From an uncultured Candidatus Nitrosopelagicus sp. (lineage in GTDB: Archaea > Thermoproteota > Nitrososphaeria > Nitrososphaerales > Nitrosopumilaceae): 64,000 nucleotides of DNA. The position numbers were made by a program, and so were the translations under genes. The notes beneath the pieces are model-generated. The model saw only the letters and a program-made list of their open reading frames with translations. It searched no databases and had not been told where the DNA came from. Where the stretch lies: assembly GCA_964511265.1 (NCBI GenBank), contig CAZEES010000003.1:836-64835 (forward strand). Reading direction: 5' to 3'. Positions 1,824 to 26,308 of the stretch are shown piece after piece (the stretch's first letter is position 1; every line of letters begins with the position of its first letter).

Positions 1824-3596
1824 TTATACTGTCGTCTGGATCGTTGGGATGAATTTTCTAGATTTTACATCTACTATCCCATTATACAGTATTCGAATAT
1901 CAGGCAGAGCCAAGAAAGGTAAGAATAAAGGAATCAGATGTGGTTTTTTGAATTTACAGCCAGCATCCAATAAGACATCATTAATTTTTGTAAAATTCTT
2001 TGTTACTTTGTCAACTGCATCAGTAGAGATAATCCCAGCCATTTGAAAAGGTAGTGATGCCAGTGTTTTTCCATCTTTGATAACAATCATTCCACCTTGA
2101 GATTTAACGAGTTTGTTTGCTGCATCAATCATGTCTTTTTCATTTGAACCAATAACAATCATATCATTTTCATGGAAACTCCATGTGGATGCAAATGCAC
2201 CTATATCAGCACCAAAATTTTCCAAAAAGCCAACAGTGTGAGTGCCACTACCAAATGTTCTGTCCATTGCCGCTACTTTCCAAATATCTTTATCATGTGA
2301 TGAGAGAACGTTCGAGTCTTTTACACTCAAATTAGCTGTGGACTTTTTTGTTACAATCTCAGTGTTCATAGAGATGATATTTACAGTTTCAGTGTTGTTT
2401 TTTGAATGTACATGGAAATTTTTATTTGATAATTTTGGAAGTTTGACAGTTTTTGTAATCCAGTTTGGTACTTTAGGGGAATGAATTGTTTCTAGGATTT
2501 TTCCATTAGAAACAACAATTTTCCCACCAAGAATTACTTTGTTAATTTTTATTTTTTTATAGTCATCTAGAATCAAAATATCTGCAATTTTTCCAGGACC
2601 AATTCCTCCAAAATCATTTCCCATTTTATAATAATCAAAGCAATTTTTTGATGCCAAAGAAATTGCATCAATTGGATTCATTCCAAGTTTAATTGATTCT
2701 CTAACACAATGATCAATGTGACCAATGTTTGATATGTCAAACGGATCTAATCCATCTGAACAAAACATTAATCGATTTTTGTAGGTACCATGAGATAACA
2801 CCAGAGGGATGATTTCTTTCAAGTCTCTACGAATTGAACCTTCTCTAACCATTATCCACATTCCAAGACGTAGTCTTTCTAACACCTGATCAAAATTTAT
2901 TGGTTCATGGCAAGAGAATATACCGGAAGAGATGTAAGAGTTTAATTTTTTACCACTTGCCCCAGCTGTGTGACCATTAATTATACAGTGATTCTCATGC
3001 ATTTGCTTTAGTGACTTTATGGTTCTAGGATCTCTTTTGGTAACTTTTGTCCAAGAAAATACTTCTCCTAGTCCAACAACAGACTGGAAACCAATCGCTT
3101 GTTTCTCTTCTTCAATACTGAGAGTTTTTCCATGACTAAATTTTCGGTCAACAGGCAAACCACCGGGTATAGTATGAAAAAATCTCATTGGTAAATTTTG
3201 AGTTTGTCGTAGAAATTCCTTAAACCCACGATAGCCACATACACTAACAATATCAATAGAATCTGGAAAGAGTGAGGTCACCCCACAGAGTAGTGATTTT
3301 TTTACAAATTCTGCAGGCGTTAAAAAATGATCAATGTGAATGTGAGGATCAACAAAACTTGGACAAACATGCTTATTTTTTACATCAAGAATTTTGGTTT
3401 TTGGACCACGTGTATGAGATGCATCTTCGCCAACAAATGCAATTCTATCATTTTTAATTGATATCTGAGTTTTTTCTTGGATTTCATTTGTATAGACATT
3501 GATTAGAGAGCAGTTTTGTAAAATCAGATCTGCAAAATCATCTCCAATAGCTACTGAATTAATTTCAGATAATACTGAAGAGAATTTAGAATGCAC
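1824..3596 (-). CDS. ade: Adenine deaminase
   Basis: DPHIHID, HECPI-like SCHEP, FCSDG motifs and C-terminal adenine deaminase domain (HENDMIVIG); 590 aa. Confidence 0.9.
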   Translation of the reverse strand: MHSKFSSVLSEINSVAIGDDFADLILQNCSLINVYTNEIQEKTQISIKNDRIAFVGEDASHTRGPKTKILDVKNKHVCPSFVDPHIHIDHFLTPAEFVKKSLLCGVTSLFPDSIDIVSVCGYRGFKEFLRQTQNLPMRFFHTIPGGLPVDRKFSHGKTLSIEEEKQAIGFQSVVGLGEVFSWTKVTKRDPRTIKSLKQMHENHCIINGHTAGASGKKLNSYISSGIFSCHEPINFDQVLERLRLGMWIMVREGSIRRDLKEIIPLVLSHGTYKNRLMFCSDGLDPFDISNIGHIDHCVRESIKLGMNPIDAISLASKNCFDYYKMGNDFGGIGPGKIADILILDDYKKIKINKVILGGKIVVSNGKILETIHSPKVPNWITKTVKLPKLSNKNFHVHSKNNTETVNIISMNTEIVTKKSTANLSVKDSNVLSSHDKDIWKVAAMDRTFGSGTHTVGFLENFGADIGAFASTWSFHENDMIVIGSNEKDMIDAANKLVKSQGGMIVIKDGKTLASLPFQMAGIISTDAVDKVTKNFTKINDVLLDAGCKFKKPHLIPLFLPFLALPDIRILYNGIVDVKSRKFIPTIQTTV

Positions 3597-5433: not shown

Positions 5434-6400
5434 TCAAAATCGACTCCATTAATGAAATAAACAAGATTATAGGAATAGATACGATTCCAAAGAAAAGTAG
5501 TGATGTAACTTTCATCAAAGTAATTGCATCTGTTACTTTTTTTGAGGTAATCTCTTGATTACCAGTTCCTAATGAATAATGTTCAATTTTTTCAAACGTT
5601 GTACCTAATGCACCAGCTAAAGCAGCCATCGGATAGCCTGCATTTGGACTATCTGTTTTTTTACCATCACGTTTGAAGATTTCATAACAATTTCTCCAAT
5701 CATGACCTAATAGCATTGCACCTAGTACCATGGTTAATCCAGTCAATCGTGAAGGAATGTAATTTAGGATGTTGTCACAATTTGCCCCAAACCAACCCAG
5801 ATTTTTGAACATTTCAGTTTTGTAGCCAATCATCGAATCAATTGTATTGATTACACGGTAAACAAATGCGCCTGGGAGACCAAATAATGCAAAATAAAAC
5901 AGCGGGCCTGTAACACCATCAACTGTATTTTCGCTGATACTTTCTAGAACTCCAGATAAAATATGATTTTTATCTAAATTTTTTGTTTTACGTTTTGTAA
6001 TCATAGCCAGATTTGTTCTTGCTTTATCAATGTCGTTATTTTCTAGTGCATTAGAAACTGCTAATGCATGCTTTTCCATACCTCTAATTGCAATTGTAGT
6101 CTTTAACAAAATGGCACTAACTAGAATTATCACTATTATGCTAACAAACTCATTTACAATTATTGAATCAAGTTTTAGATTTAGTATTAGCAATAATGTA
6201 GCAACAACAGTAGCGGAGATTAATACGATAAGTATGCCACCAAATTTCTCCAAGTGTGTATTTTCATTTTTAAATAATGGTACTAAATTGCTGACAAATT
6301 TACCAATCCATGCAGTTGGATGGTATTTATTTCTTGGATCACCAAAAACAAGATCTAGGAATATAGCGAGCCCAATTACAACAATTGATTCCAAGATCAT
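5426..6400 (-). CDS. cbiB: Adenosylcobinamide-phosphate synthase
   Basis: GDP...HP, ESISENTVDG, YRVINTIDSMIGY, SPNAGYP motifs. Confidence 0.95.
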   Translation of the reverse strand: MILESIVVIGLAIFLDLVFGDPRNKYHPTAWIGKFVSNLVPLFKNENTHLEKFGGILIVLISATVVATLLLILNLKLDSIIVNEFVSIIVIILVSAILLKTTIAIRGMEKHALAVSNALENNDIDKARTNLAMITKRKTKNLDKNHILSGVLESISENTVDGVTGPLFYFALFGLPGAFVYRVINTIDSMIGYKTEMFKNLGWFGANCDNILNYIPSRLTGLTMVLGAMLLGHDWRNCYEIFKRDGKKTDSPNAGYPMAALAGALGTTFEKIEHYSLGTGNQEITSKKVTDAITLMKVTSLLFFGIVSIPIILFISLMESILIA

Positions 6401-19510: not shown

Positions 19511-20020
19511 ATGGTTGACAAGTATGAAGACCCTTTTGTGAAAATTGCAGCAATGATTGGCGGAGATGAGTATCTCAAAGTTGCACGTTCTCTATTAAAG
19601 ACAGAAGATGCAACAGATGAAGAAATTGCTAGTTCGACAGGACTTCGTATCAACATGGTAAGGCGAGTATTATACGATTTATTTGGAAAAGGTTTGATAA
19701 CTGGCGTTCGTGTAAAAGACGAAAGAAAAGGTTGGTTTGTTTACAGATGGCGTTCAAGAAGAGATGAAGTTGAAAATTTCATAGAAAACCAAAAAAAGAA
19801 GATCCTTGACAGACTACAAAAGAGATTGGATTATGAAAACTCATCTGATTTTTACCATTGCGGAAATGAAGATTGTTCAAGATCAACATTTGAAGATGCA
19901 TTAGAATTATTTTTCAAATGTCCATCATGTGGACAAGTTCTTAATCTTAAGAAAAATGAAAAAATTCGAAAGAATTTTACAAAAAAAATTGATCAGATTA
20001 AAGGCGACATACGAGTTTAA
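19511..20020 (+). CDS. tfe: Transcription factor E (TFIIE alpha)
   Basis: wHTH VRRVLYDL, GWFVYRW, Zn ribbon CPSCG. Confidence 0.95.
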   Translation: MVDKYEDPFVKIAAMIGGDEYLKVARSLLKTEDATDEEIASSTGLRINMVRRVLYDLFGKGLITGVRVKDERKGWFVYRWRSRRDEVENFIENQKKKILDRLQKRLDYENSSDFYHCGNEDCSRSTFEDALELFFKCPSCGQVLNLKKNEKIRKNFTKKIDQIKGDIRV

Positions 20021-20670
20021 ATTTTATAATTTAAAATAATCTCATTACCACTTTTATGTACTTTTTTTAATTTTAAAGATGGCTTGATTTTTGATGATGT
20101 TAAAGAAGGTCCTTCAAATAGATTGACAGTATTTTTTGAGCCTAAAACATAAGGAGTAAGTGCAATAATCATTTCATCAATAAGATTTTTCTTCAAAAAA
20201 GAGTGGTTTAGTGTCCCACCGCCCTCTAGAAGGATAGTCTTGATTCCTTTTTTGTACAAAATAGATAGAAGTTTTGTTATATTTACTTGGTTTTTTCCAC
20301 ATACAATTACATCTAGAGATAATTTTTGTAACCGATGTAGATTTGAATTTGATACAAGTTCGGATGTAACAATGATGGTTGAAACACTTTTACAAGTTTT
20401 AATTATTCGAGAATTATTCTTGATTGTTCCACGAGAATCTAAAATAATTCGAATAGGGTTTTTTCCTTTGACATGTCTGACTGTTAAAAGAGGATCATCC
20501 TGTTCTACCGTGTTTTTTCCAACTAGTATAGCATCTGACTTTGAACGAAGTTTATGAACTCGTATCTTATCAGATTTTGATGACAATACAATTTTTTTGT
20601 TTTTTTGGCCAATTTTCCCATCAAGAGTTATTGCAGCACTCAGAATAATTTGAGGTTTAGATTTTTCCAT
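20017..20670 (-). CDS. 2,5-diamino-6-ribosylamino-pyrimidinone 5'-phosphate reductase (RibD C-terminal-like)
   Basis: AITLDGKI, VHKLRSKSDAILVG, LLEGGGTLN. Confidence 0.92.
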   Translation of the reverse strand: MEKSKPQIILSAAITLDGKIGQKNKKIVLSSKSDKIRVHKLRSKSDAILVGKNTVEQDDPLLTVRHVKGKNPIRIILDSRGTIKNNSRIIKTCKSVSTIIVTSELVSNSNLHRLQKLSLDVIVCGKNQVNITKLLSILYKKGIKTILLEGGGTLNHSFLKKNLIDEMIIALTPYVLGSKNTVNLFEGPSLTSSKIKPSLKLKKVHKSGNEIILNYKI

Positions 20671-21841
20671 TTACAATTTTTCCTCCAATCATTACAGCCT
20701 TAATTGATTTTTCAGAAGCACGATGAACTATGGATGCATGAACATTATTCATTGGATCCAGATCAATTGAATTTTTATCAATGAATATGCAATCTGCAAG
20801 ATAATTTTCTTTAATAGATCCAATCTTTTGATTGAGAATTTTTCCGGCATTAACAGTAGCCATTTTTAGTATTTGTTTTGGATCAAATCTGTTTTGAGAT
20901 ATGCCCATTGTTACTTTCCATAGATAATCCATCTCTCTAAAAATATCGGGGGAATTAATCATTACATTATCAGTTCCAATTGCAATGTTACAACCTAGTT
21001 TTTGCATAAGTACAATGTTAGGAATTCCTTCAGCCAATGAAGAATTTGCGCGTGGACACACAACTATACCTCTAGTGTTTTTTGCTGCTAATTTTAGATC
21101 ATTTTTTGTTGCAAAAGTCATATGAATTAGGAAAGTTGGTTTTAGTAACATCGCTCTTTGGATTTCGGATTTTGCAGTTAGTTTTTTTGAAACGTTTACA
21201 CTTTCCATGGTTTCAGCTGCATGGATCACACGCATTTTTTTTGTTTTTGAGAATGATTGAAGATTAGAATTACTGTTTTCGTTTGTTCCACTAATTCCAA
21301 TTCCATCACAATTTTTTAATAATTGGGTTAATTGTTCACAATTTGCCTCAGGTAGTGGCATGTTACTCTTAATTTCAGTCCTAGTGTTGTAATGCTCAAT
21401 TCTACCTAGAATGACACATCGAATAGGTACATCAATTAAGGATTTTTTCAGTAATAGTACGCCATCTAGGCCACCTTCTCTAAAATCAACAAAAGTTGTA
21501 ATTCCTTTTTTGATCATAGATTTTGCAGAATTTTTTATATATTTTGATAAAACTTTACTGGGAGTTTCTTTTAGAAGTTTTTGTTTGAGACCAATCATTG
21601 GATGAATTTTTGAATTTACATCAGCATCAATAGATAGATCTTTTCCAATTGAATCAGCTATATGTGTATGTGAGTTGATTAATCCAGGAATTAATAATAA
21701 ATTTGAACAATCAATAGATTTCTCTTTTGATGATATGTGTTTGGAGATTTTTTCAAACTTTCCATTTTTAATTTGTACATTAGTTGATTCGACAAATTTT
21801 AAGTGGTTTCCATATAGTATACTAATATTTTTTAGAATCAA
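20657..21841 (-). CDS. Metal-dependent amidohydrolase within riboflavin operon
   Basis: NSHTHIAD, IHAAET, IHMT, VVCPRAN, GTDN. Confidence 0.88.
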   Translation of the reverse strand: MILKNISILYGNHLKFVESTNVQIKNGKFEKISKHISSKEKSIDCSNLLLIPGLINSHTHIADSIGKDLSIDADVNSKIHPMIGLKQKLLKETPSKVLSKYIKNSAKSMIKKGITTFVDFREGGLDGVLLLKKSLIDVPIRCVILGRIEHYNTRTEIKSNMPLPEANCEQLTQLLKNCDGIGISGTNENSNSNLQSFSKTKKMRVIHAAETMESVNVSKKLTAKSEIQRAMLLKPTFLIHMTFATKNDLKLAAKNTRGIVVCPRANSSLAEGIPNIVLMQKLGCNIAIGTDNVMINSPDIFREMDYLWKVTMGISQNRFDPKQILKMATVNAGKILNQKIGSIKENYLADCIFIDKNSIDLDPMNNVHASIVHRASEKSIKAVMIGGKIVNGKI

Positions 21842-22587
21842 TTTAATTCATAAATATCAGGTTTTTCTTTTCCTGAATCTCTAATTTCTCTTATGGTGTC
21901 AAGAGATTTTGTTGCAAGCTTTACAGCATTTCTAGATGTTTGTGCAGTACCTATTCCACAGTTCAATACAACTTGAAATTCATCTTTACACATTTTGATA
22001 AATTCTTTTGCAAAATTTTTGAATTCAGAATTAGTTACTACCATAAAATTATCTCCACCCATAAAAAATGTGAGTGAGTTTTTTGAGAGAAAGTATTCTG
22101 ACATTCTCGAATATATTTTGAACATTAAAGAAGATGTGTCATAAGGAGACATTTTTTTCCGTTTGGATGTTAAATCATCTACATCTAGATGCATTATAGT
22201 AACAGAGTGTTCTGAGTGACCATTTAATGTTCCAAAAATAGAATATTGCTCATTGAGAAATTTTTGTGATTTTTTTGCTTCATATGCATCGAGATTTGCA
22301 TCGTATGGGTTTTCCCCAAAACCAATTGACATTGAAAGTTTTACATCAAAAGAAGTTTCTAGTTCTTTTTGTATTGTTATATGATCATCAAGTGTAAGAC
22401 CATTTGTAACTGAAAAGTATTCATCAGAACGATTAAGAAAAACAAGGCAGTTTTTCTTAGAAAATGATTCTTGTAATTTATGATATAATCTTGATTGTAA
22501 CATTTGTAATTCATGTTCACGATCACTTCCCAATGTAAGAGTCCAAGGACCATATCCAGTAATTTTCATTATTGTTAGTTGTATCAT
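21838..22587 (-). CDS. gch3: GTP cyclohydrolase III (IIa)
   Basis: GYGPWTLTLGSDREHELQMLQ, FMGGDNF. Confidence 0.93.
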   Translation of the reverse strand: MIQLTIMKITGYGPWTLTLGSDREHELQMLQSRLYHKLQESFSKKNCLVFLNRSDEYFSVTNGLTLDDHITIQKELETSFDVKLSMSIGFGENPYDANLDAYEAKKSQKFLNEQYSIFGTLNGHSEHSVTIMHLDVDDLTSKRKKMSPYDTSSLMFKIYSRMSEYFLSKNSLTFFMGGDNFMVVTNSEFKNFAKEFIKMCKDEFQVVLNCGIGTAQTSRNAVKLATKSLDTIREIRDSGKEKPDIYELN

Positions 22588-23000
22588 TTTTCTATTTCCT
22601 TAATCTCATTATCAAGTTTGAGTACTGCATTTACTGCATTTTCAGATACCGGTCTGATTCTTGCATATGCTTGTCTTACAGCCATACCTGGTCCAGATAT
22701 TCCAAGTGATACGGGTTTTTGATGTTTTATTGCTAATTTAGTAAGATTTCTTGCAGTTGAATTAGCTATTACTTCATCGTGTTTTGTTTGACCTTTGATG
22801 ACAGCACCTAAAGTTACTACAGCGTCAATATCATCTCTTTGCAATAACTTATCAATAATTAAAGGCATGTCGAAGATTCCTGGTACATGACTTGTATGAA
22901 TTACATCAAGATTTAGCTTTTCTGCAGTTTCTATTGCAACGTCATACATACGTGATGTGATTTTTTGATTAAAATCCGCGACAACTATTGCAATTTTCAA
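22584..23000 (-). CDS. ribH: 6,7-dimethyl-8-ribityllumazine synthase
   Basis: IVVADFN, VPGIFDMP, GAVIKGQTKHD. Confidence 0.95.
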   Translation of the reverse strand: MKIAIVVADFNQKITSRMYDVAIETAEKLNLDVIHTSHVPGIFDMPLIIDKLLQRDDIDAVVTLGAVIKGQTKHDEVIANSTARNLTKLAIKHQKPVSLGISGPGMAVRQAYARIRPVSENAVNAVLKLDNEIKEIEK

Positions 23001-23002
23001 AA

Positions 23003-23677
23003 TTAATTCACCTTAGAAAATTCAAGTAATTCTTTACCATTAATGAAAGGAATCGCGTTTTCTTTTGCATATTTTTCTGCTTTATCAACTGATAATGCAG
23101 AATATGTTTCAGCGTCCATCATTTCACAGATAGCAGTAATTGGTGAGAGGTTTGCCAATTGAGTCAAGTATACTGACATTTCAGTGTGACCAGTTCTAGA
23201 AGAGAGAAGACCATTTGACGCTATCAGCAGAGGAATATGACCAGGAGTTTTGAAGGTTGAGTTGAAAATGTGTTTTGGATTTTCTTTTTTATATAAAGTG
23301 GACATCTCTTTGATAGTTAATGCTCTATCTCGATCAGTGATTCCAGTGTAAGTTTGTTTATGGTTTATACTAATTGAAAATGTTGGATGATCTCCATATG
23401 GAGCAGTTCCCATAACCATTTTTTTGGATTCTTCATCTAGATGATTTGATTGAGACAACATGTTGTGCATGTATTTTAGTTGTAATTGTTCTGCAAGAGA
23501 GTTATCAATTGCAAGACAAATTAATCCACCTGCGTGTTTTCTCATTCTTACAATATGTTCAGGGGTGATAAATTCTGCTGCAACAACCATATCGATTTCA
23601 TTTTCACGGCCATCAGAATCGTGAATCATTACAAATTCGCCACGTTTTAATGATGAAATTGCAGAATCAAATGTCAT
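23003..23677 (-). CDS. ribB: 3,4-dihydroxy-2-butanone 4-phosphate synthase
   Basis: DSDGRENEID, GLICLA, TGITDRDR, PGHI, RTGHTE. Confidence 0.95.
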   Translation of the reverse strand: MTFDSAISSLKRGEFVMIHDSDGRENEIDMVVAAEFITPEHIVRMRKHAGGLICLAIDNSLAEQLQLKYMHNMLSQSNHLDEESKKMVMGTAPYGDHPTFSISINHKQTYTGITDRDRALTIKEMSTLYKKENPKHIFNSTFKTPGHIPLLIASNGLLSSRTGHTEMSVYLTQLANLSPITAICEMMDAETYSALSVDKAEKYAKENAIPFINGKELLEFSKVN

Positions 23678-23751
23678 AATAAAAATAATTTTTTAGTTAT
23701 TATAAAGTTTACTAGATTTTTAGTTATTACCAATTTATTGGTAATTATTAG

Positions 23752-24336
23752 TCATTTTAAAATGTATTTTCCTAGCACATCAGTCTCAATGTTCAACTTA
23801 TCATCAATGTTTTTTGTTTTAAAATTAGTAATTTGTATTGTATGAGGTATGAGACAAACAGAACCTAGATCATTTTTTACATCAACAACTGTCAAGCTTA
23901 TTCCATCTAAAGCAATAGAACCTTTTTTGACTACATATTTTTTGAGACTTTTTGGAATTTTAAACCAAACTTTTACTTCTTTTGGTTTTTTTTCTATTTT
24001 TTTAATTTGTGCAACACCATCAACATGACCCAATACAAAATGCCCCTCTAATCTTTCTCCAACTTTAAGACTACGTTCAACATTAACAATACTTCCAACT
24101 TTAAGATTTCCTAAATCTGTTTTTTTCATTGTTTCATCAATCATTTCAAACGTACAGATATTTTTCACAATTTTAGTTGCACTAAGACATACACCGTTCA
24201 GTGCAACACTCTGACCGATTTTTAGTCCTTTAGAATCTTTACCTAGATCAACAGATACTTTGATTGCACTACGATTTTTTGTGTTTTGTTCTATTTTTTT
24301 GATTTTTCCAGTGCTAGTAATTATTCCAGTAAACAT
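23752..24336 (-). CDS. ribE: Riboflavin synthase, bacterial alpha-chain type
   Basis: MFTGII N-terminus, SVALNGVCLS, GHFVLGHVD, KGSIALDGISLTV. Confidence 0.95.
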   Translation of the reverse strand: MFTGIITSTGKIKKIEQNTKNRSAIKVSVDLGKDSKGLKIGQSVALNGVCLSATKIVKNICTFEMIDETMKKTDLGNLKVGSIVNVERSLKVGERLEGHFVLGHVDGVAQIKKIEKKPKEVKVWFKIPKSLKKYVVKKGSIALDGISLTVVDVKNDLGSVCLIPHTIQITNFKTKNIDDKLNIETDVLGKYILK

Positions 24337-24369: not shown

Positions 24370-25224
24370 TTAGATAATTTCGAGTAGGGCTTTGGCTCGT
24401 TTATAATGAACTTCATCAATCATTTTTCCATCAACTACAATTGCTCCTTTTCCTTTCTTTGTTGATTTTTCATATTCTTGTACTACTAATTTTGACCAAG
24501 TTATTTCAGAGGAATTTGGATGAAATATTTTGTGCGTTATTTTGAGTTGATCAGGATGGATTATACTTTTTCCTGTATAGCCTAATTCTTTACCTAATTT
24601 ACAATCTTGTTGTAAGCCTTTTTCATCTTTGATTTCTTGCCATATTCCATCAATAGCAGCAACTCCTGCAGCGGCAGCTGCAACTGGTACTTTATATCTA
24701 GAATATTTTGCACCAATTGGATTTCCTTTTGTGTATTCAATTTGCATATCATTCAATAAATCAAATATTCCAAATACTATAGCATCAACTCTCTTACTTG
24801 CTGATGCAATTTCATAGCAATTAATCACACCTAGAGCGGATTCTATGGAAGGAATTAGACGTATTTTTTTGAGTTTTCTTTTCTTTTCTAAATTTGAGAT
24901 AATTTTTTCAATTTTTTTCAATTCTTTTGCAGAATCCACTTTTGGGATGACAATTCCATCTAATCCTTTTTGAACTACTTTTTCTAAATCGCTAGGAATT
25001 TTGCCTGATTGAGGTGAGTTAGTTCTTACAAATACAGATGCAGAAAAATCTTTGCGTTCTTTTAATTTTTTTGAAATTAATGTTCTAGCATTTTGTTTTT
25101 CGTTATCAGGAACTGAATCTTCTAAATCAAAACAAACTATGTCACCAGAAAGTGATTTTGCTTTTTCTAGAAATCTTGGATTATTTCCAGGTACAAAAAC
25201 TAGACTACGAAAAAGATTTGTCAT
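24370..25224 (-). CDS. CitE/HpcH-family CoA-ester lyase
   Basis: RSLVFVPGNN, DLEDSV, IPKVDS, GYTGKSIIHPDQ. Confidence 0.9.
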   Translation of the reverse strand: MTNLFRSLVFVPGNNPRFLEKAKSLSGDIVCFDLEDSVPDNEKQNARTLISKKLKERKDFSASVFVRTNSPQSGKIPSDLEKVVQKGLDGIVIPKVDSAKELKKIEKIISNLEKKRKLKKIRLIPSIESALGVINCYEIASASKRVDAIVFGIFDLLNDMQIEYTKGNPIGAKYSRYKVPVAAAAAGVAAIDGIWQEIKDEKGLQQDCKLGKELGYTGKSIIHPDQLKITHKIFHPNSSEITWSKLVVQEYEKSTKKGKGAIVVDGKMIDEVHYKRAKALLEII

Positions 25225-25231
25225 TAAATGA

Positions 25232-26308
25232 CTATGCGCCTTCAGGCTTCATTAAGATTTTGCCAAAGAACTTGCCAGATAGCATCTTGGTGTGAGCCTC
25301 TGCTGCTTGTTCGAATGTATGGATTGAGTCAACTGCTGCTTTAATTTTTCCTTGTCCCATCCAGTATAGACCTTCATCAAGTTCAGCTTTTGTTCCTTGT
25401 GTTGAACCTAGGACGTTAATTCCTTTGAAGAATATGTGTCTAAGATCTATTTGTGCGTCATAACCTGTTGTTGCACCACATGAAACTAGAGTTGCTCCAT
25501 ATTTGAGTAAGGTTAGTTGCTTATTGAAATGGGTTTGACCAATGTGGTCAAATGCAACATCAATTCCAGGTGCTTGATTCTTTGTTTTAGCGATTTCTTT
25601 TGAGATTTTGAAGACTTCTTTATTCCAATCGTCTTTTCGGTGATCTACTGCATGATCTGCACCAAGTTCAAGACATTTATCTAATTTATCAGGACTAGCA
25701 GTTGCAATTACATCACAGTTGTATAATTTGGCAATTTGAATTGCAAAACTTCCTACACCAGAACCACCACCCATTACAAGTACGGTTTGACCTGGAGTGA
25801 TTTTTGCTCTGCCAACTAACATGTGCCATGAGGTTAGAATTGTCATAGATGCTGCTGCTGCGTCTTCATAAGAAACTGAATCAGGAATATGTGAAACATT
25901 AACTTCTGGTAAATGAATTTCTTCGCTGTATGCACCCCATAGTGGACCAGTTTGGAATCCCCAGACTTGTCTTTTCACACAATCAAATTCTCTACCACTT
26001 GTACAAGCACTACAAACTCTACATGCTAAATTAGAATGTGAAACAACTCTATCGCCAACTTTGAAACCTTTTACATCCTCACCAACTGCAATCACATCTC
26101 CTGCAACATCTGAACCAGATACGTGTGGTAGTGGAACTGGAACTGGGTTTCCTCTCATTCCCCAGATATCATTATAGTTTAGAGCAGATGCTTTGTTTGT
26201 GAAAATTACCTCATCTGGTTTTGGTTTTGGTGAATCAATATCTTCAACCTTGAGGATTTTAGCATAATCGTCATCAGGTGCATATTCACGGTATACAACT
26301 GCTTTCAT
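25232..26308 (-). CDS. MDR-superfamily NAD(P)H oxidoreductase, paralog 2
   Basis: Closely similar to 11191-12264; CRVCSAC...C, GGGSGVG. Confidence 0.9.
   Translation of the reverse strand: MKAVVYREYAPDDDYAKILKVEDIDSPKPKPDEVIFTNKASALNYNDIWGMRGNPVPVPLPHVSGSDVAGDVIAVGEDVKGFKVGDRVVSHSNLACRVCSACTSGREFDCVKRQVWGFQTGPLWGAYSEEIHLPEVNVSHIPDSVSYEDAAAASMTILTSWHMLVGRAKITPGQTVLVMGGGSGVGSFAIQIAKLYNCDVIATASPDKLDKCLELGADHAVDHRKDDWNKEVFKISKEIAKTKNQAPGIDVAFDHIGQTHFNKQLTLLKYGATLVSCGATTGYDAQIDLRHIFFKGINVLGSTQGTKAELDEGLYWMGQGKIKAAVDSIHTFEQAAEAHTKMLSGKFFGKILMKPEGA

Follow-up and report, generated by a model that had tools for sequence, protein, structure and literature searches.

A deaminase-type amidohydrolase in the riboflavin operon of Candidatus Nitrosopelagicus as the predicted archaeal pyrimidine deaminase

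The window analysed here, a 64,000-nt stretch of DNA from the marine ammonia-oxidising archaeon Candidatus Nitrosopelagicus, harbours a riboflavin operon in which a gene coding for an amidohydrolase (AH) is placed between the gene of GTP cyclohydrolase III (GCH III) and that of the pyrimidine nucleotide reductase. The question raised by this arrangement is which step of the pathway, if any, AH performs. The deamination of the pyrimidine intermediate is of particular interest, being the last catalytic step of archaeal riboflavin/F420 precursor synthesis without an assayed enzyme in the searched literature. A sequence-only reading of the locus had proposed AH as a candidate for a missing archaeal step, either deformylation or deamination.

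All genes of the operon are encoded on the minus strand, in the order ribE-ribB-ribH-arfA-AH-arfC. The product of ribE (23752..24336) is a bacterial-type riboflavin synthase (Lum_binding; PF00677, 150 bits; NF006767, 217 bits, above the cut-off). It is followed by ribB (23003..23677; PF00926, 196 bits; TIGR00506, 221 bits), the lumazine synthase gene ribH (22584..23000; PF00885, 119 bits; TIGR00114, 126 bits), the GCH III gene arfA (21838..22587; PF05165, 172 bits), the gene of the 394-amino acid AH (20657..21841), a predicted pyrimidine deaminase, and the reductase gene arfC (20017..20670; PF01872, 163 bits; TIGR00227, 190 bits; TIGR01508, 183 bits). The ORF of AH opens with TTG, and the alignment shows this start column to be common to its homologues. 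The earlier description of a gene overlapping both gch3 (arfA) and the pyrimidine reductase gene (arfC) is borne out: the gene is real, the overlaps amount to 4 nt (TTGA) and 14 nt, respectively, and AH is translationally coupled to both neighbours. According to the Pfam and NCBIfam profiles, the product of arfC consists of RibD_C only and is devoid of a deaminase domain. As had also been claimed, the operon contains neither ArfB nor a RibD deaminase domain; profile searches detected in it no creatininase gene and, in any product including AH, no cytidine-deaminase-fold domain (PF00383). Directly upstream of ribE, at 24370-26308 (-), lie the genes for a CitE/HpcH-type CoA-ester lyase and a crotonyl-CoA reductase-like zinc dehydrogenase. 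The stop codon of the lyase gene is separated from the start of ribE by 33 bp only, and the lyase is kept upstream of ribE in one related genome as well (L059).

Comparison with profile libraries places AH among the amidohydrolases exclusively, with 135 bits to Pfam Amidohydro_1 and no match to the creatininase profiles (PF02633). The highest score, 328 bits against a curated cut-off of 294, was obtained with NCBIfam NF005552 (PRK07213, “chlorohydrolase”), and this match is full-length (residues 2–385 of AH versus positions 3–377 of the 382 in the model), while the best other named family among the NCBIfam profiles reached 130 bits. Judged by these scores, AH is a member of NF005552, a family that branches separately within the guanine/cytosine-deaminase-type amidohydrolases. 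When 44 homologues, extending down to 25% identity, were aligned, H58, H60, D63, E210, H240, C262 and D291 showed no variation at all, and no fewer than 90% of the homologues retained H207 and R264. The pairs H58/H60 and H207/E210 represent the HxH motif of strand beta-1 and the HxxE motif (here HAAE) of strand beta-5, and H240 and D291 correspond to the beta-6 His and the beta-8 Asp, respectively. The intact metal ligands noticed previously (H58, H60, H207, E210, H240, D291) are thus conserved across the family, and AH combines a (beta/alpha)8 barrel with the HxH, HxxE, His and Asp set of the deaminase-type amidohydrolases.

In the AlphaFold model built from the alignment, which is of high confidence (pLDDT 96.3, pTM 0.94), the fold of AH resembles that of deaminases. 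The top matches of a Foldseek search against the PDB are all deaminases or dechlorinases of the AH subgroup, with TM-scores of 0.79–0.86, including the isocytosine deaminase Vcz (7ww2) and bacterial, yeast and human guanine deaminases (2i9u, 2uz9, 6oha). Among proteins of solved structure, those closest to AH in sequence are adenosine/MTA/SAH deaminases, TM0936, AtzA, guanine deaminases and an 8-oxoguanine/isocytosine deaminase. The characterised HxxE enzymes of this subgroup deaminate, deiminate or dechlorinate their substrates at an sp2 carbon, and no formamide hydrolase is known among them. Guanine and isocytosine deaminases strip the 2-amino group from a 4-oxopyrimidine ring, and the same moiety is carried by the riboflavin intermediate. 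AH therefore shares with these enzymes (2i9u, 2uz9, 7ww2) the TIM-barrel fold (TM-score ∼0.8–0.86), the HxH/HxxE/His/Asp residues and, as predicted, the moiety that is attacked. On the other hand, its identity to them is 14–22% only, it is shorter (394 versus ∼430–450 amino acids), D63 and the motifs F120-R-E and C262-P-R264 are specific to its family, and its predicted substrate is a ribityl 5'-phosphate pyrimidine instead of a free base.

The association of AH with riboflavin genes extends well beyond this genome. Among the Nitrosopumilaceae loci with enough flanking sequence to judge, the order ribE-ribB-ribH-arfA-AH-arfC is found in 53 out of 53, and a match to AH at E≤1e-30 is present in 89 of the 301 sampled genomes of the phylum. 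More distant homologues (23–60% identity) are located within 1 kb of arfA, arfC, ribH or ribB at 17 of 20 loci (11 families), with no rib neighbour at the other three. As to co-occurrence, 75 of the 102 genomes bearing GCH III also have AH at E≤1e-30. The 27 that lack a match at this threshold include 20 genomes of a single family, f11 (G011, G051, G075, G131, G250; L146–L155), where arfA directly adjoins arfC and no RibD deaminase domain was found. The only relative of AH in this family is weak yet full-length (50–60 bits, ∼23% identity, 360–406 amino acids) and encoded away from the rib genes; either this protein could represent an orthologue that has diverged, or another deaminase may be in use. 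The boundary of the AH family is soft, since some homologues at 26–31% identity are embedded in gene clusters of bacterial style for catabolism or transport. No fusion of AH to the reductase occurs among the forms longer than 690 amino acids that were searched, which is weak evidence.

In two other families of the phylum (represented by G002 and G165), AH-arfC directly adjoins cofG-cofH, the genes of F0 synthase, an enzyme that consumes 5-amino-6-ribitylaminouracil, i.e. the deaminated and dephosphorylated product of the pathway. The AH-arfC-cofG-cofH clusters are located at 6063–11309 of L047 (G002:C4:59400-72700) and at 6056–10272 of L048 (G165:C9:35500-48800). Neither of these genomes gave a match to GCH III or GCH II, and no creatininase match was obtained in G002 and G117. 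A further genome (G007), which is 76% complete only, encodes AH together with RibBA (GCH II) and showed no GCH III or creatininase match; the route that starts with RibBA-type GTP cyclohydrolase II needs no deformylase. Among the control genomes, matches to NF005552 at E≤1e-80 were found in M. jannaschii, H. volcanii and M. acetivorans. The last of these had no GCH III, GCH II or creatininase profile match, and its first riboflavin steps may depend on enzymes missed by these profiles.

Taken together, the fold class, the catalytic motif, the conserved synteny and the co-occurrence indicate that AH is very probably the enzyme that deaminates the pyrimidine on the archaeal route to riboflavin (and F420). 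From the two alternatives of the sequence-only reading, deamination is the one that gains strong support from this evidence. The substrate, the order of reactions relative to the reductase and the chemistry we infer as follows. AH would be a mononuclear-metal amidohydrolase of the guanine/cytosine-deaminase type that hydrolytically takes the 2-amino group off the diaminopyrimidinone intermediate. Its substrate would most likely be the product of ArfC, 2,5-diamino-6-ribitylamino-4(3H)-pyrimidinone 5'-phosphate, and the predicted products are 5-amino-6-ribitylamino-2,4(1H,3H)-pyrimidinedione 5'-phosphate and ammonia. By analogy with the solved relatives, the metal would be held by H58, H60, H207 and D291, H240 and D291 would activate the metal-bound hydroxide for an attack on ring C2, and E210 of the HAAE motif may relay protons both to the nitrogen of the ring and to the amine that departs.

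The reverse order of the two reactions deserves some consideration. AH could act on the ribosyl intermediate prior to reduction, as in bacteria (EC 3.5.4.26 proper), leaving the deaminated compound to ArfC. This order would be consistent with the position of the AH gene upstream of arfC and with the scores of ArfC, which reaches a slightly higher value on the model of the bacterial RibD C-terminal domain (190 bits, above the cut-off) than on that of the archaeal reductase (183 bits, narrowly below the cut-off of 186). Nevertheless, the order of genes in an operon is a poor guide to the order of reactions, and in M. jannaschii the reductase goes first (Graupner 2002, as related in PMC5397151 and PMC13028884), so that action of AH on the ribosyl form seems rather improbable. 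The precedent of M. jannaschii makes the ribityl form the preferred candidate for the substrate of AH.

A different matter is whether AH might supply the deformylase. The host genome (1.10 Mb, 99.8% complete) possesses one creatininase-family gene only (G000:C2:66056-66748), an ArfB/BrbF-type candidate the product of which scores 137 bits on the MftE model, 101 bits on the creatininase model and 51 bits on the ArfB model, where the cut-off is 180. The sole gene of the cytidine-deaminase fold (PF00383) in this genome codes for a ComEB-type dCMP deaminase and is located beside PolB, and the profile search detected no RibD-type deaminase in the genome. Hence a candidate deformylase exists in this organism, whereas a conventional riboflavin deaminase does not, and deamination is left as the sole catalytic gap of the pathway. 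The creatininase gene begins 4 bp past purU (formyl-THF deformylase), with rpiA ∼1.4 kb downstream. No RbkR-like site was seen near the creatininase gene and purU (G000:C2:65200-68834, corresponding to 5200–8834 of L009).

Elsewhere, the two enzymes are encoded close together. On a 339-kb metagenome contig of a distant archaeon (L140), the genes ribB-ribH-arfA-AH-arfC-creatininase form one co-directional block with overlaps, and the creatininase of this block displays the same profile pattern as that of the host genome; on another contig (L160), the creatininase and AH genes are adjacent. This indicates that both enzymes are kept together. Creatininase-family genes were also found in f1 (43/43), f11 (20/20), f13 (6/6), f18 (5/5) and f19 (9/10), all of them families bearing GCH III. 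ArfB and BrbF, the formamide hydrolases of the creatininase family, resemble AH in belonging to the same pathway, at an adjacent step, and genes of their type co-occur with AH in operons of other genomes; they differ from it in fold and family, and the ArfB-type candidate of the host genome is a separate protein.

Against this background, it appears highly unlikely that the AH of Nitrosopumilaceae, rather than the divergent creatininase homologue, is a formamide hydrolase that deformylates the product of GCH III in place of ArfB, or that it carries out both deformylation and deamination, even if in the latter case one enzyme would close two steps of the archaeal pathway. The absence of ArfB from the operon, the score of just 51 bits (cut-off 180) reached on the ArfB model by the only creatininase-family protein of the genome, and the position of the AH gene directly after arfA could all be read in favour of such an activity. 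However, the close structural relatives of AH are without exception enzymes of deamination or dechlorination that act on a ring or amidine carbon of the sp2 type, and the family as a whole conserves the HxxE deaminase motif (H207 in at least 90% of the 44 homologues, E210 in all of them). Moreover, the operon of L140 unites AH with a creatininase of the same profile pattern, nearly every sampled family bearing GCH III has creatininase-family genes, and AH accompanies arfC-cofGH in some genomes and GCH II in another, all of them lacking a GCH III match. M. jannaschii has a strong match to the AH family in addition to its biochemically proven ArfB. The deformylation alternative of the sequence-only reading is consequently disfavoured by the creatininase gene elsewhere in the genome, by L140 and by M. 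jannaschii.

Just as doubtful is a role of AH as a purine, pterin or nucleoside deaminase of salvage or damage control that is a mere passenger of the operon, or as an enzyme for some by-product of the pathway: the solved structures most closely related to it are indeed those of adenosine/MTA/SAH and guanine deaminases and some distant homologues are found in unrelated clusters, but it falls into a separate curated family (328 bits versus at most 130 for any named deaminase family), its linkage to rib genes holds down to 23% identity in many families, its gene overlaps those on both flanks, and it is linked with cofGH.

The assignment of AH as the archaeal pyrimidine deaminase has precedents. 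According to Rodionova et al. (2017, PMC5397151), Archaea apparently lack orthologues of the deaminase domain of RibD, and a candidate named “PyrD” was put forward on the basis of clustering and co-occurrence (Osterman, Overbeek & Rodionov 2010, as cited in PMC5397151). The 2017 paper states that this proposal “remains to be tested”. Pfeiffer and Dyall-Smith (2021, PMC8305020) list HVO_2483 and MJ0699 as the PyrD candidates that need experimental confirmation, and recent reviews name no archaeal deaminase enzyme. The genomes of MJ0699 and HVO_2483 are those of M. jannaschii and H. volcanii, both of which match NF005552 (E≤1e-80); the locus tags are not part of these matches, the papers name no protein family for the candidates, and the putative identity of MJ0699 with NF005552 is drawn from the control-genome matches together with the literature. 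The assignment of AH to pyrimidine deamination in Archaea is a well-supported rediscovery of what had been predicted in print, and no new idea is offered here, since the hypothesis is already published. The notion of a missing archaeal step holds insofar as neither an assay nor a knockout of any enzyme from the AH family turned up in the searched literature, but what is probably the same family had already been proposed as “PyrD” (PMC5397151, PMC8305020). AH clusters with riboflavin genes behind an RbkR-type operator, as PyrD does, and the predicted reaction is shared; there is no substantive difference between the two, AH being probably the Nitrosopelagicus orthologue.

The putative operator is a perfect palindrome, TTACCAATAAATTGGTAA (23727..23744), which lies 50–67 bp upstream of ribB and fits the consensus of the Thaumarchaeota RbkR operator, TTAC-N10-GTAA (PMC5397151). 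Of 41 Nitrosopumilaceae loci, 33 have such a motif at the corresponding place, and many of these carry a pair of sites spaced by 18 bp, in agreement with the tandem sites described in PMC5397151. In its bare form, the pattern occurs three times in the 64-kb window, versus 0.84 expected, and 29 times in the genome, which is not significant alone. Given how frequent the bare pattern is genome-wide, the argument for RbkR is carried by the position, extension and conservation of the palindrome. Based on this motif, AH is predicted to be located downstream of an RbkR operator, as is the case for PyrD in the RbkR regulon.

The supporting context added by the present analysis comprises the operon with both creatininase and AH, the linkage to cofGH and the conserved predicted RbkR site. 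If AH is indeed the pyrimidine deaminase, a TIM-barrel amidohydrolase would be a non-orthologous replacement for the cytidine-deaminase-fold domain of RibD/RIB2. The predicted reaction of AH is the same as that of the N-terminal domain of RibD and of fungal RIB2, or its ribityl variant, and in both cases the function adjoins a RibD_C-type reductase; in contrast, the folds are unrelated and there is no sequence similarity. In that case, thousands of “chlorohydrolase” and “amidohydrolase family protein” annotations could be corrected as well. The window also encodes a second amidohydrolase at 1824-3596 (-), an adenine-deaminase-like protein of 590 amino acids, which scores 383 bits on TIGR01178, below the cut-off of 472.
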